Assembly: GCA_964573295.1 (NCBI GenBank)
Contig: CAZNJE010000002.1
Span: 31,351 to 95,350 of the forward strand
Length of the DNA stretch: 64,000 bases
Source of the DNA: an uncultured bacterium
GTDB taxonomy: Bacteria > Eisenbacteria > RBG-16-71-46 > CAIMUX01 > WJJG01
Reading direction: 5' to 3'
The translations under genes and the position numbers were made by a program. The notes beneath the pieces were generated by a model that was given only the letters and a program-made list of their open reading frames with translations, ran no database searches and was not told where the DNA came from. Below, piece by piece: positions 2,727-21,496 of this stretch (positions are counted from its first letter, which is position 1; each line of letters opens with the position of its first letter).

Positions 2727-4727
2727 ATGAAAAACTGGACGGTGGGCAAGAAGATCACATTCGGCTTCGGATTCGTGGTGTTGGCTCTGGCCGGCGTGTC
2801 CCTGTGGTCGGTCGTGGGCGTGGGCACGATCGTCAAGAACGCCGAGGAGGTCATCGGGGGTAACGTGCTGCGCGGTGAGATGGTCCAGCGTGAAGTAGAC
2901 CATCTCAGCTGGGCCAACGCGGTCAACGCCTTGCTGAACGATGATTCGGTCACCGAGCTGTGCGTCGAGACCGATCCCCACAACTGCGCCTTCGGCCAAT
3001 GGTACTATGGCGAAGGGCGCCAGCACGCCGAAGAGCTGGTGCCGGAGATCGCCGGAGACCTGCGAGCCATCGAGTCGTGGCACGATCAGCTCCACGCCTC
3101 GGCCGCCGAGATCGGCAAGGTCTTCCACCAGGCCGATTTGGGCCTGAGTGCCGAGTTGCAAGCGAAAAAGGTGGACCATCTGCGCTGGGCCGCCGTGATC
3201 CAGGACGCCATGCTCGACCAGAGCTGCACGCATGCCGATGTGCAGACCGATCCCCGCCAGTGCAAGTTCGGCCAGTGGTACTACTCCGACCAGGTGCGTC
3301 GACTACGCTCGGAGGATCCGGAGTTCGATGCGGTCTGCCAAGCGGTCGAGGCCCCGCACCGCAAGCTGCACGAGAGCGCTGTCCACATCAACGATCTCTT
3401 GATCGAGGACCAGCGCGCCGAGGCGCTCGAACACTACAATACGCACACCGCCCTCCTCGCGGATCAAACCTGCCAGGCGATCGACGACATCATCGCCTGG
3501 AACGAGCGGGCCGTCGACGGACTCCAGGCCGCGCAGCAGATCTATGCCCAGGAAACTCAACCTTCGCTCGCGCAGGTGCAGGGATATCTGGGCGCGATTC
3601 GTGACAAGGTAACCGACAACGTCATGACCGATGAGCAGATGCTGGCCAGCGCCACCCAGACCCGCTTCGGCGTACTGGCGATCAGCATCGTCGCCGGTGT
3701 GATCGCCATCCTGCTCGCGATCACGATCACCGCCGGCATCAAGAAGCTGCTCACCCGGATCGCCACCGCACTCGAGGAAGGCGCCGCCCAGGTCTCGAGC
3801 GCCGCCAACCAGGTCTCCAGCTCGAGCCAGTCGCTGGCCGAGGGCTCGGCCGAGCAGGCCGCCTCGATCGAGGAGACCTCCAGCAGCCTCGAGGAACTGG
3901 CCTCGATGACCCGCCGCAACGCCGACAACGCCGGCGAGGCTAACACGCTGGCCGCCACGGCCCAGGCCAATGCCACGAAGGGCGGCGAGGCCATGCAGCG
4001 GATGGGCACGGCCATCGACGACATCAAGGGTTCCTCGGACGAAACGGCCAAGATCGTCAAGACGATCGATGAGATCGCCTTCCAAACAAATCTGCTCGCC
4101 CTCAATGCCGCGGTCGAGGCCGCCCGCGCCGGCGAGGCCGGCAAGGGCTTCGCGGTGGTGGCCGAAGAGGTGCGCACCTTGGCCCAACGTTCGGCCGAGG
4201 CCGCCAAGAACACCGCCGATCTCATCACGCAGGCGGTGACAAAGGCCGAGAGCGGCGTCTCGATCAGCCGCGAGGTGGCCGAGGTGCTGAAGGAGATCGA
4301 CCATGGGTCGACCCGGGTCAACGAACTGATCGGGCAGATCACGACGGCCAGCCGCGAGCAAGCCGAGGGCGTGGACCAGATCAACACCGCCGTCTCTCAG
4401 ATGGACCAGGTGATCCAGTCGAATGCGGCCAACTCTGAGGAAACCGCCGCGGCGGCCGAAGAGATGAGCGCCCAGGCCGAAGAGCTCGACTACAACGTGG
4501 CCGAGCTGCAGCGGATGGTCCGCGGCTACGCGCACGATCGTCCGGGCCGGTCGCGCCGTGGGCCGCAGGCCGCGCGGCAGCGGGCCACGCGGCAGCGGGA
4601 AGAGAGTCCAGTTGAGACGCCGGTGGTCGCTAATCTGGAAATTGATACGGTGCAAACGAGGCAACTGGGGAATGCGGGGATGGTCATCCCAATCGACGAT
4701 CACGAGGAGATCGCCGCGAGCTCTTAG
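2727..4727 (+). CDS. Methyl-accepting chemotaxis protein with tandem CZB-like domains between two TM helices
   Basis: N-terminal TM, then two repeats carrying DHLxW...CxFGQWYY...HxxLH (CZB-like 3His/1Cys signature), a second TM, then the MCP signalling domain ([42 protein letters not shown]). ATG at 2727 lies 8 nt after GAGGAAG. Confidence 0.9.
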
Positions 4728-18826: not shown

Positions 18827-21496
18827 CTACTCCACCACCACGATCCGGCGGGTCATCTCTTGCCCCGAGGCCTGCGCACGGATGAAATAGATACCCGTCG
18901 GCACCGCATGACCCCGCTGGTCGCGTCCATCCCAATTGATGGCCGTCTCGCCCCCGTCGAGCACGCCCAGCAGAAGGGTCCGCACGCGCCGGCCGGCGGC
19001 ATCGAATAGCTCGACCCGCGCCTCGTTCGCCGAAGGCATGCGCAGCCGCAGCGTGGTTTCCCCCGAAGTCAGCGAGGGTTCGGGCCGGCTCAGGTGCAAG
19101 CGTCCTCCCGCCAGAACATCCGGCACGCCCTGCGAGCTGCTCAGAAGATACTCCACGGTGTTCTCGAGAAGCTGGCCGGCCAGGGCGCCATCGGTGAGCG
19201 CATCGTAGTCGATGGCCAGGAACACGATCTGCCCCTCGCCGCGACCGGGCATGTCATAGACCAGGATGCCGGCACCATCCGGATAGCTGCTCGTGCCGTA
19301 GACCACCGTGGCGTCGGCCAGTGGCGAGGCCGCGTCCTGATCGCCGAAGTAGTCGTAGGTCACATCCAGCGTCGACGGCAGCGCGTTTGGCAAGGTGGCC
19401 AGCGGATGGTCGCTCTGGCTCGTCCGCAGCACGAGGTCTCCGGCGTTGTCGGTGTGGTAGTCGGATAGATGCAGCACCTCGCTCGCGATCTCGGGGTAAC
19501 CCGGACTCGAGAGCGCATCGTAGGCCACCTCGCCGCCCTCGACGACCAGCTTGCCGCCGCCGGCCACGTAGCTGAGCATGGCTTCCCGGCGTCCTTCCAT
19601 CCGCAAGGGGTTCTTGTACGAGCCTGCGCTCCAGAACACGAGGTCGTAGCCGCCCCAGGTAGCCGGCTGAGTCGTGACGATCGTCTCGCGCGTCGCGCGG
19701 TAACCGAGCGCGGTTAGATCCTCGGTCACGATATTCGTGGGGTTCTCGTCGGAGACGACCAGAATCTCGGCCCTCGCGGGAGGCAGCGCGAAGTCGAGCG
19801 TCTGGTTGCCGCTCACCGTCTGGGTCTCGGTGACCGACACGTGACCGGGTGCGCTCGCCACGATCTCGTAGGTCCCCGCCGGTACTTCGGCGGTGTACTG
19901 GGCCGTGGTCTCATCGGCTTCCACCTGAAGGAACAGCTCCCCGGTGTCACTCCGGTAGACCGCCACCATGGCACCGGTGAGCGGCTGACCCGTCCCGGCC
20001 TGGTTCACGACGCCCGAGACATCGTACCAGGAACCGGCACGCTGAAGATGCACATCGTGGACCGTCGAGACGCCCTCGCTCACGGCGAGCGGCGACGAGG
20101 TGTAGGGCTGGTAGCCGTAGGACTCGATCTCCAGCGTGTAGGTGCCCGGCTCGAGCATGCGGTGGTAGAAGCCGCCGTGCGCATCGTTGTAGATTGCTTT
20201 GCCGATTTCGCCCACGTCGATCGTCGCTGGTACGGGGTTGCCGGTAGCAGCGTCGGTGATCACGCCCTCGATGCCGTTGCGCGCTTGGGCCAGCAGCCAC
20301 AGCATGGCGTCGCGATTCTCGTCCCAGAAGCTGGGCAGCTGATAGGCCGGCGGCCACTTGACGTTGCTGAGCTCAATACAGAAATGGAGTTCGTTGCGCC
20401 AGTTGTACGCCCAATCCTGGAAGCCGCCGTGGATGACGTACCATTCCCAGCCGATCGTGACGCCCTGGTAGAATTGGCCGCTGTTCCACATCGGCGGGTT
20501 GCGATACGAGTAGCCCAGCGCCAGGTTGTGTATCTGGTCGTGGTCGGGCGTGTATTGCCCGTAGAAGCAGTCCCACGGATAGTTCACCACCAGCGCCCCG
20601 CCGTGGTAGTTGACGCCGATCGTGAAGTTGTAGTCGTACTGCCAGATCATCATGTGCTGGACTTCGGTGGGCCGGCCCTCGGGGTCATCGTTGGGATCCT
20701 CGAGCGGGTCGGGGAAATTGCGGTTCAGGTCGTAACCGCTCGCGTTGTAGCGCGTGCCGGCGGCGTTGCCGTCCGGGTTGTGCAGGGGGCAGATCCAAAT
20801 CTCGAGATCGTCGACCAGGGCGGTCAGGTCCGGGTCGATGCCGTAGTTCTCCACCAAGAGCCGGATCAAATAGACGCACATCTCCATGCCCACCACCTCA
20901 TCACCATGGATCGTGGCGGTGTACTTGAAGGCCGGCTCGGGCTCATCCTCGGTCACGTTGTCCGAGAGCTTGAGCATCCACAGCTCCCGACCCTCCTCCG
21001 ACTGCCCGATCGATGTGAGCATCGCGATATCGGGATGGTCGCTGGCGATCTGCTGCAATTCCGCCGTCAGGGACTCGTAGGTGTGATAGTCCTCACGCCC
21101 CGGGGCGCGCAGGCCGGCGTCGACATCAGCCTTGAACTGCAGGAAGGCCCTACGCGCCTGGTTCGGAATGGCCTGGATCCGGTAGCCCGCCGACTCGAGA
21201 TCGGCGAAGGCGGCGTCATCGACGTAGGCCGTCACCCGCGCCCCGTCGAACTGATCGATATCGATCTCCCCAGCCTCGAGGGCCGACAACTCGAAGGGCG
21301 TGGCCACCTCGATCTGGACCGGGAAACGTCCCGTAAAGGGACAGCGATCCGCCTCGGTCGGCAAAGAGCCCTCGGAGGGAACCGCCTCGGCCAGGGCGAT
21401 CGTCACGGCTCCCCATCCCGTGAACAGAAGCAAGCAGGCCAGCGCGGTTGCGAGGTGCTGGATTGCGTTCGGGAGCCATCGGGCCATTCGGCGCAT
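18827..21496 (-). CDS. M14-family zinc carboxypeptidase with carboxypeptidase-regulatory-like and T9SS-type C-terminal sorting domains
   Basis: Signal peptide, HGDEVVG / NPDG M14 motifs, C-terminal ...TTLRLRMP...VELFDAAGRRVRTL...GIYFIRA tail. AGGAGG SD. Confidence 0.85.
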   Translation of the reverse strand: MRRMARWLPNAIQHLATALACLLLFTGWGAVTIALAEAVPSEGSLPTEADRCPFTGRFPVQIEVATPFELSALEAGEIDIDQFDGARVTAYVDDAAFADLESAGYRIQAIPNQARRAFLQFKADVDAGLRAPGREDYHTYESLTAELQQIASDHPDIAMLTSIGQSEEGRELWMLKLSDNVTEDEPEPAFKYTATIHGDEVVGMEMCVYLIRLLVENYGIDPDLTALVDDLEIWICPLHNPDGNAAGTRYNASGYDLNRNFPDPLEDPNDDPEGRPTEVQHMMIWQYDYNFTIGVNYHGGALVVNYPWDCFYGQYTPDHDQIHNLALGYSYRNPPMWNSGQFYQGVTIGWEWYVIHGGFQDWAYNWRNELHFCIELSNVKWPPAYQLPSFWDENRDAMLWLLAQARNGIEGVITDAATGNPVPATIDVGEIGKAIYNDAHGGFYHRMLEPGTYTLEIESYGYQPYTSSPLAVSEGVSTVHDVHLQRAGSWYDVSGVVNQAGTGQPLTGAMVAVYRSDTGELFLQVEADETTAQYTAEVPAGTYEIVASAPGHVSVTETQTVSGNQTLDFALPPARAEILVVSDENPTNIVTEDLTALGYRATRETIVTTQPATWGGYDLVFWSAGSYKNPLRMEGRREAMLSYVAGGGKLVVEGGEVAYDALSSPGYPEIASEVLHLSDYHTDNAGDLVLRTSQSDHPLATLPNALPSTLDVTYDYFGDQDAASPLADATVVYGTSSYPDGAGILVYDMPGRGEGQIVFLAIDYDALTDGALAGQLLENTVEYLLSSSQGVPDVLAGGRLHLSRPEPSLTSGETTLRLRMPSANEARVELFDAAGRRVRTLLLGVLDGGETAINWDGRDQRGHAVPTGIYFIRAQASGQEMTRRIVVVE

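Follow-up and report, generated by a model that had tools for sequence, protein, structure and literature searches.

CZB zinc-binding domain in a chemoreceptor sensor

CZB domains carry a metal site of three histidines and one cysteine and are known chiefly from cytoplasmic proteins. A gene located on the plus strand of a 64,000-nucleotide stretch of DNA from an uncultured member of Eisenbacteria (assembly GCA_964573295.1, contig CAZNJE010000002.1, positions 31,351 to 95,350; hereafter the window) raises the question of whether such domains can form, in two copies, the periplasmic sensor of a chemoreceptor and, if so, what they might respond to. The gene product is a class-I (two-transmembrane-segment) methyl-accepting chemotaxis protein (MCP) with a sensor made of two periplasmic CZB modules, and we hold this architecture and topology with high confidence. 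Within the large, widespread and uncharacterized family to which it belongs, and which automated annotation already recognizes, the gene is nothing out of the ordinary. The most interesting outcome is accordingly not the gene itself but the extensible design of the family, in which one to five stacked CZB modules add 92 + 36 residues each and which appears to be undescribed.

Two CZB modules between the transmembrane segments

A preliminary description of the locus had proposed two tandem CZB domains between the transmembrane (TM) segments, each with the motifs DHLxW, CxFGQWYY and HxxxH. Both the duplication and every one of these motifs were recovered here. The Pfam CZB model (PF13682) matches two stretches of the protein, with 92.9 bits for the whole protein against a gathering score of 29.4, and each module exceeds this threshold when scanned alone: residues 37−143 (module 1, M1) reach 55.8 bits (6e−15) and residues 144−238 (module 2, M2) 50.0 bits (4e−13). 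M1 comprises DHLSW (58−62), CAFGQWYY (87−94) and HDQLH (119−123), with H59, C87, H119 and H123 as ligands, whereas the corresponding elements of M2 are DHLRW (150−154), CKFGQWYY (179−186) and HRKLH (211−215), with H151, C179, H211 and H215. The period between the two motif sets is exactly 92 residues, and the modules align without gaps, displaying 38% identity over 82 residues (E = 3e−20). The 3His/1Cys pattern Hxx[WFYL]-x(21-28)-Cx[LFMVI]Gx[WFLVI]-x(18-27)-HxxxH is satisfied twice, with spacers of 24 and 26 residues in each module, and the predicted fold is a four-helix bundle like that of the DgcZ CZB domain. All eight ligand residues are invariant among 24 two-module homologues. A metal site in each of the two modules is considered very probable. 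Apart from these modules, the 64-kb window contains no further CZB motifs. A match of this quality cannot plausibly arise by chance.

Four additional cysteines are present in the periplasmic region, namely, C79 (nucleotides 2961−2963), C167 (3225−3227), C204 (3336−3338) and C249 (3471−3473). C204 lies on the HxxxH-bearing helix of M2 and C249 on a repeat of the segment returning to the membrane (R2, see below); the two co-occur in the nearest relatives only and might form a disulfide. A disulfide conserved throughout the family was considered and rejected, because C79 and C167 are unique to the window protein and C204 and C249 are paired only in the nearest clade.

Topology and the cytoplasmic domain

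Kyte−Doolittle hydropathy (sliding-window values above 1.6) identifies exactly two hydrophobic segments, residues ~12−36 and ~314−340 (peak 2.96), which bracket the repeats. Lysines K2, K9 and K10 precede TM1, and K339, K340 and R344 follow TM2. Since the kinase-control domain must be cytoplasmic and a single TM helix separates it from the repeats, the latter face the periplasm; this placement draws on the hydropathy profile, the positive-inside rule and what an MCP must do to function. The window also codes for a TonB-dependent receptor that contains a Plug domain (8861−10924, minus strand), evidence that this organism is bounded by an outer membrane and possesses a periplasm. The proposed periplasmic orientation of the repeats therefore holds, and so does the suggestion that they replace a canonical sensor, as no 4HB_MCP, HBM or Cache model matches this region. 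Membership in HBM (PF16591) was rejected in view of the lack of a match at E ≤ 1 and the single long periplasmic helix (230−298) in the structural model described below. For 4HB_MCP_1 (PF12729), only residues 3−43, corresponding to the TM1 region, match, with 23.5 bits against a cut-off of 27, and this assignment was rejected too.

The cytoplasmic part matches Pfam MCPsignal (PF00015) at residues 408−563 (2e−45) and contains the conserved hairpin-tip motif. NCBIfam models of Escherichia coli and Salmonella receptors align with it co-linearly and with no net indel: residues 338−622 correspond to Tcp 258−543, residues 342−594 to model positions 263−515, and residues 345−593 to 262−510. No HAMP domain was matched in the receptor by Pfam at E ≤ 1, and TM2 directly adjoins the residue that corresponds to Tcp 258. 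Based on the co-linear alignments, TM2 meets the methylation helix at the point where HAMP ends in Tar/Tsr, and the signalling domain belongs to the E. coli length class, which should make Tar/Tsr-type chimeras straightforward. The receptor thus resembles E. coli Tar, Tsr and Tcp in its co-linear signalling domain and conserved hairpin tip, but lacks HAMP after TM2 as well as an NWETF-like C-terminal pentapeptide. In most relatives, an acidic run and then an aromatic pentapeptide, [FY]xx[FY] (e.g. DFEEF or GFDRF), close the sequence; the pentapeptide is a probable CheR/CheB tether. The C-terminus of the window receptor (4686−4724) has lost the aromatic residues of the pentapeptide.

Predicted structure of the sensor

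We modeled residues 1−348 with AlphaFold2 using a 24-sequence alignment and obtained a mean predicted local distance difference test score (pLDDT) of 92.2. In the model, one helix (6−71) comprises both TM1 and the first helix of M1, which bears H59. It is followed by a 16-residue non-helical stretch, two short helices (88−93, starting at C87, and 97−104) and a helix bearing H119 and H123 (106−132). M2 repeats this pattern, with helices 140−163 (H151), 180−185 (C179), 188−196 and 198−226 (H211, H215). The chain then returns in a single helix of 69 residues (230−298, pLDDT >90) that breaks at residues 299−301, after which helix 302−347 runs through TM2. The return helix is composed of two 36-residue repeats, R2 and R1, and the sequence at the break forms a conserved hinge, of which [IV]MTD is present in most full-length family members.

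The same procedure applied to a three-module relative (P0005) yielded a single return helix of 105 residues (321−425), again with pLDDT >90. Because a straight helix of this length is compatible only with such an arrangement, the bundles are likely stacked end to end. We infer that each 36-residue return repeat supplies the fourth helix of one bundle. The order would then be nested, M1−M2−R2−R1, each bundle combining one CZB repeat with one return repeat and accounting for a predicted height of ~50 Å per module.

Module number and the building rule of the family

A word-indexed search retrieved 79 relatives, all of which have an N-terminal CZB region between two TM segments. A profile search covering 1.84 billion representatives, clustered at 50% identity, returned 7222 clusters at E ≤ 1e−3, 2285 at E ≤ 1e−10 and 988 at E ≤ 1e−30. 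Complete metal motifs were counted in the top 150 profile matches, considering only proteins in which TM2 is present. Two motifs were found in 90 proteins, three in 25 and five in one (P0081). A further 18 have a single motif by regular expression yet the spacing of two- or three-module proteins; the examples inspected contain degenerate, off-pattern or interrupted modules. Likewise, P0086 has three modules by motif count and four CZB stretches by Pfam, which detected three, four and five stretches in the relatives tested.

Module number is reflected in the position of TM2, which starts at about residue 185, 312, 440, 560 and 689 in proteins with one, two, three, four and five modules, respectively. 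The increment is 127 residues per module, that is, 92 residues of CZB plus 36 residues. The latter correspond to a repeat, A..IY..ET.P.L..VQ..L, in the segment returning to TM2, and its consecutive copies are exactly 36 residues apart in those relatives where the pattern detects them. This rule of 92 + 36 residues represents an unusually clean natural case of an extensible helical sensor. M1 of the window protein is 43−52% identical to the module of one-module relatives and 56−66% identical to M1 of multi-module relatives, whereas M1 and M2 within one protein share 30−40% identity. M1 is therefore orthologous across proteins of differing module number, implying that the CZB duplication is old. 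Across 301 family proteins, the His-Cys-His-His tetrad is complete in 572 of 607 modules.

Long sensors occur in P0081 (1028 residues, five modules) and P0086 (899 residues, four modules), for which the predicted stack would measure ~200−250 Å, comparable to the width of the periplasm. In three relatives (P0145, P0183 and P0203), CZB module 2 is interrupted by an sCache_2 domain, which is inserted after the first helix of the module and before the Cys motif, giving rise to a hybrid of helical stack and Cache sensor.

Relationship to known CZB domains and helical sensors

In a survey of 10,140 CZB sequences (Perkins et al. 2021, mBio; PMC8262984), putative periplasmic CZBs of membrane-bound chemoreceptors constitute a bioinformatic category of 384 sequences, the variable 'cluster III', whose Cys motif has Ala or little conservation at position 2. 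The window sequences CAFGQW and CKFGQW fit this description, CxFGxW being common to characterized CZBs, and the receptor, like the group, is an MCP with an invariant Cys motif and with its CZB region located N-terminally, between the TM helices. Given this census, a periplasmic location of CZB is not new, and the preliminary description, faced also with the size of the two-module family, overstated the novelty of a periplasmic CZB chemoreceptor. Its premise that CZBs are normally cytoplasmic and single is right for the majority, but fails for the 384 periplasmic sequences and for the common two-module sensor. Relatives of the window protein already carry the NCBI label 'CZB domain-containing protein'. 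The difference from the periplasmic group of the census lies in the number of modules, two in the window protein and one to five in its relatives, and in the matched 36-residue return repeat of each; tandem CZBs are not described in the searched part of that article. More generally, the literature searched contained no description of intramolecular tandem or stacked CZBs. The expression 'Two CZB' in a TlpD preprint was considered as a tandem precedent and rejected, since it refers to the two subunits of a dimer.

Solved CZB structures are limited to E. coli DgcZ (PDB 3T9O/4H54) and, in a 2026 preprint, Helicobacter pylori TlpD. Both domains are cytoplasmic and single per chain, and are positioned either N-terminal to a GGDEF domain (DgcZ) or C-terminal to the MCP coiled coil (TlpD). 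Outside the motif, the similarity of the window CZBs to these domains is below detection by phmmer and hmmsearch. Moreover, unlike in DgcZ and TlpD, their fourth helix would be provided by the return helix that the modules share and that continues to TM2.

The overall shape is reminiscent of the HBM sensor of McpS (PDB 2YFA), the periplasmic region of PilJ (7ZJR/8WDF) and the TorS sensor (3O1H), which are likewise all-helical periplasmic sensors of two-TM receptors, roughly 100 Å in size, with one bundle near the membrane and the other distal to it. The structural matches are weak to moderate, and the Foldseek match to McpS (2yfa) is not significant (E = 0.1). In contrast to HBM, the window sensor has one long helix instead of two and no Pfam HBM or 4HB_MCP match; in contrast to HBM-type stacks, its modules are sequence repeats, each with a metal site predicted from its motif, and reach up to five copies in the family. 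One alternative to a sensory role of the metal is that zinc is purely structural. The stacked bundles would then have an organic or ionic ligand, held in a bundle pocket or at the interface of the dimer by analogy with Tar, McpS, PilJ and NarX-type four-helix sensors, or they would interact with a periplasmic binding protein in the way TorS receives TorT. This alternative is quite unlikely, because conservation is concentrated at the metal tetrad and its surroundings and no binding-protein gene is conserved beside the receptor in the 80 loci described next.

Distribution and genomic context

A taxonomic survey of MCPs with periplasmic CZBs, performed on one genome per species, confirmed at least 561 relatives, of which the best 80 loci were examined. 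All 80 carry the two-module sensor: matches span nearly the whole query with 41−83% identity, all but five loci have exactly two metal motifs by motif scan, and TM2 starts at residues 305−330 except in the 5′-truncated L035. The closest of these proteins, L001, is 83% identical over the first 348 residues, i.e. the sensor and TM2, and metagenome-assembled genomes (MAGs) of Pirellulales, Brocadiaceae and Phycisphaerae encode sensors with 56−61% identity. Hosts belong to Planctomycetota (Pirellulales, Phycisphaerae, Sedimentisphaerales, Brocadiaceae), Desulfobacterota (Desulfovibrio, Maridesulfovibrio, Pseudodesulfovibrio, Desulfobulbaceae, Desulfuromonadales), Spirochaetia, Bacteroidales, Zixibacteria, Latescibacterota, Krumholzibacteriia, Ignavibacteria, Nitrospirota and Fibrobacterota. 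They are largely anaerobic sediment and subsurface taxa and include a few cultured strains (Dethiosulfatarculus sandiegensis and Pseudodesulfovibrio pelocollis). Paralogous pairs of two-module receptors also occur: L005 and L018 lie ~8 kb apart on one Sedimentisphaerales contig, and L009/L013 and L025/L036 come from the same MAGs.

The spacing between TM2 and the cytoplasmic hairpin falls into at least three classes, namely, ~105 residues without HAMP, as in the window protein (33 loci), ~141 residues (28 loci) and 155−214 residues (7 loci), the last of which fits HAMP-containing relatives. As it is joined to signalling domains of several lengths, with or without HAMP, the sensor seems to act as a self-contained, transferable input cassette. 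Clustering of the neighbourhoods of the 80 loci revealed no recurring transporter, binding protein or redox partner; only CheW and CheA recur, adjoining the receptor gene in 16 and 7 loci, respectively. The genes next to the window receptor are unrelated and encode a GT2 glycosyltransferase, a B12-radical SAM protein and an RRM protein.

Possible stimulus and signal transmission

Our best explanation as a whole, which we regard as evenly balanced between right and wrong, is a stacked two-CZB periplasmic sensor with the stimulus acting at the Zn-thiolate site. Each CZB repeat contributes three helical elements and a complete His-Cys-His-His site, and the long return helix of two 36-residue repeats runs back past both modules to the [IV]MTDxxML hinge and TM2. 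With one Zn(II) per module, each subunit would hold two ions and each receptor dimer four. The stimulus may be a chemical change at the Zn-thiolate bond: reactive oxidants or thiol-reactive compounds that reach the periplasm would oxidize or otherwise modify Cys87, Cys179 or both. No other chemistry has been demonstrated for CZBs (TlpD and DgcZ). Once the Cys−Zn lid is broken, the short helix bearing the Cys would become loose and the bundle would repack, so that the shared return helix might be displaced or rotated. Its movement could pass through the hinge and TM2 directly to the methylation helices, altering the control of CheA. As a single output helix is common to both modules, it would add up their signals. 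That the natural stimulus is a redox or thiol-reactive cue is put forward tentatively, with somewhat less than an even chance. The hypochlorite (HOCl) mentioned as an example of an oxidant in the preliminary description is chemically consistent with the CZB family, but neutrophil-type HOCl is ecologically unlikely as the natural cue, since the present hosts are mostly environmental anaerobes.

Several observations weigh against this explanation. O2 and H2O2 react slowly with Zn-thiolates, HOCl is not an obvious cue in sediments, and reversal of periplasmic Cys oxidation would require a reductase, none of which was identified. In a few relatives all four ligands are lost with scaffold and register retained (M2 and M3 of P0117 and M1 of P0121, with His replaced by Leu, Ile or Phe, Cys by Thr or Ser, and His by Tyr), and thus the CZB fold can work without metal. 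The stacking and the site geometry are deductions from helix lengths and copy-number scaling. No CZB structure among PDB sequences was reached by phmmer with the sensor or by hmmsearch with the 24-sequence profile; these searches gave only insignificant matches, including the TM2−HAMP region of Tsr at E = 0.16. The literature searched reports no experiment on any periplasmic CZB, containing only the 2021 census (PMC8262984). Finally, no che genes were found within the 64-kb window. This last observation, together with the degenerate C-terminal pentapeptide, could also be explained by a non-functional receptor, either decaying or an orphan paralogue. That is highly improbable, because the open reading frame (ORF) of 666 residues is intact with all functional motifs conserved, the protein is 83% identical to its orthologue L001 over the first 348 residues, and a second MCP gene lies nearby, MCP genes being commonly scattered away from che operons.

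A change at the Zn-thiolate bond is not the only way in which the sites could be used. They might serve as reversible periplasmic metal sensors, the signal being their occupancy by Zn2+ or another soft metal (Cu, Cd, Co). Cells would then swim up or down gradients of bioavailable metal, with tandem sites affording cooperativity or a wider dynamic range. Such a role agrees with the position of the sites in a periplasm equilibrated with the environment, with the variable number of modules (one to five) and with the enrichment of hosts in sulfidic habitats (Desulfobacterota, Ectothiorhodospira, Magnetococcales), where free Zn2+ is extremely low by established chemistry. There is also a precedent in DgcZ, which is regulated by zinc occupancy (PMC8262984). 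The same source gives a sub-femtomolar zinc affinity for the characterized CZB site, and this implies off-rates too slow for chemotaxis on the scale of seconds unless the periplasmic sites are much weaker. Reversible metal sensing is therefore disfavoured if the affinity is as extreme as in DgcZ. In addition, no zinc-uptake or efflux genes are conserved beside the receptor gene in the 80 loci, and the Cys is essentially invariant even though three His suffice for zinc binding. Altogether, we consider this alternative unlikely, although deserving of some weight.

Alternatively, HS−, low-molecular-weight thiols or polysulfides may compete with the Cys thiolate for Zn, and such ligand exchange would let cells navigate sulfide gradients by means of a fast reversible switch. 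In the characterized CZB, the zinc site is covered by the Cys as by a 'lid' (PMC8262984), and the distribution of the family is weighted strongly toward sulfur-cycle and anaerobic sediment bacteria, which makes the idea attractive. However, Planctomycetota, Spirochaetia and Bacteroidales, which lack any special sulfur metabolism, contain the family as well, and the idea is purely inferential, with no precedent in the literature searched. We view it as improbable, and Cys modification remains our preferred, if tentative, proposal.

The CZBs studied to date are cytoplasmic zinc or HOCl sensors of host-associated bacteria, whereas the present site is periplasmic, repeated and joined without HAMP to a kinase-control domain, and occurs across environmental anaerobes. 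If Zn-thiolate chemistry is used there, it would reveal how anaerobes perceive oxidants, sulfide or the availability of metals from the cell surface. In a broader and rather doubtful scenario, the family would represent modular periplasmic 'stack' sensors, in which one to five Zn-thiolate bundles (~50 Å each, up to ~250 Å) are arranged on one output helix, forming a dedicated chemoreceptor for metal bioavailability or for sulfide/oxidant fronts in sulfidic and anoxic sediments, with module number tuning cooperativity or the depth of periplasm sampled. If true, the stack sensor would constitute a chemoreceptor class specific for metals or sulfide, the first to be defined, and would provide a new rule for extensible sensor domains.

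Gene features and neighbouring genes

The features of the receptor gene are collected in Table 1. An alternative in-frame GTG is present at position 2718, upstream of the ATG at 2727. The latter is preceded by GAGGAAG 8 nucleotides upstream and yields the N-terminus MKNWTVGKK; it is preferred because homologues start with MxWK (pattern MxWKxxxLGxK). No sigma-28-type promoter pattern was detected in the upstream stretch 2300−2730. Long antisense or alternative-frame ORFs of up to 466 residues overlap the receptor gene (e.g. 3303−4703, minus strand) and have no family support; they were rejected as genes, being artefacts usual in DNA of 64% GC content.

Table 1. Features of the chemoreceptor gene (window positions; R, return repeat)
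Feature	Residues	Position	Strand	Evidence
Chemoreceptor coding sequence	666 plus stop (4725−4727)	2727..4727	+	ORF list; Pfam MCPsignal and two CZB; N-terminus as in homologues
TM1	~12−36	2760..2834	+	Hydropathy; part of continuous AlphaFold2 helix 6−71
CZB module 1, probably membrane-proximal	37−139	2835..3143	+	Pfam 55.8 bits alone; ligands invariant in 24 homologues; orthologous to module 1 of relatives
Putative metal ligands of module 1	H59, C87, H119, H123	2901-2903, 2985-2987, 3081-3083, 3093-3095	+	Invariant in 24 homologues
CZB module 2, probably membrane-distal	140−229	3144..3413	+	Pfam 50.0 bits alone; 38% identical to module 1; ligands invariant
Putative metal ligands of module 2	H151, C179, H211, H215	3177-3179, 3261-3263, 3357-3359, 3369-3371	+	Invariant in 24 homologues
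Return helix, two 36-residue repeats	R2 233−268 (ALEHYNTHT...), R1 269−304	3423..3638	+	AlphaFold2 helix 230−298; repeat register and copy number equal to module number in relatives; 105-residue helix in three-module relative
Conserved hinge VMTDEQML between return helix and TM2 helix	299−306	3621..3644	+	AlphaFold2 break 299−301; family consensus MTDxxM
TM2	~314−340	3666..3746	+	Hydropathy peak 2.96; AlphaFold2 helix 302−347
Kinase-control (methyl-accepting) domain without HAMP, E. coli MCP length, hairpin motif	341−600	3747..4526	+	Pfam MCPsignal; NCBIfam alignments
Basic low-complexity C-terminal tail, terminal pentapeptide degenerate		4527..4724	+	Sequence; relatives end in [FY]xx[FY]

The second MCP gene of the window (7317−8846, minus strand) encodes 509 residues with MCPsignal as the only domain and without HAMP; its periplasmic region of ~140 residues matches no Pfam family. 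It abuts the gene for the TonB-dependent receptor mentioned above. Further along, three large and probably secreted peptidases are encoded on the minus strand (13377−16127, 18827−21496 and 50691−53996), two being M14 zinc carboxypeptidases and one an S8 subtilase. Those at 18827−21496 and 50691−53996 contain CarboxypepD_reg and C-terminal FlgD_ig-like domains. Genes for GlnRS (46863−48920) and GluRS (48757−50457) are neighbours, both on the minus strand. The GlnRS ORF is listed at 685 residues, ~115 residues longer than its homologues (563−575 residues), which suggests that its true start is internal; P0222 is 100% identical to this protein.

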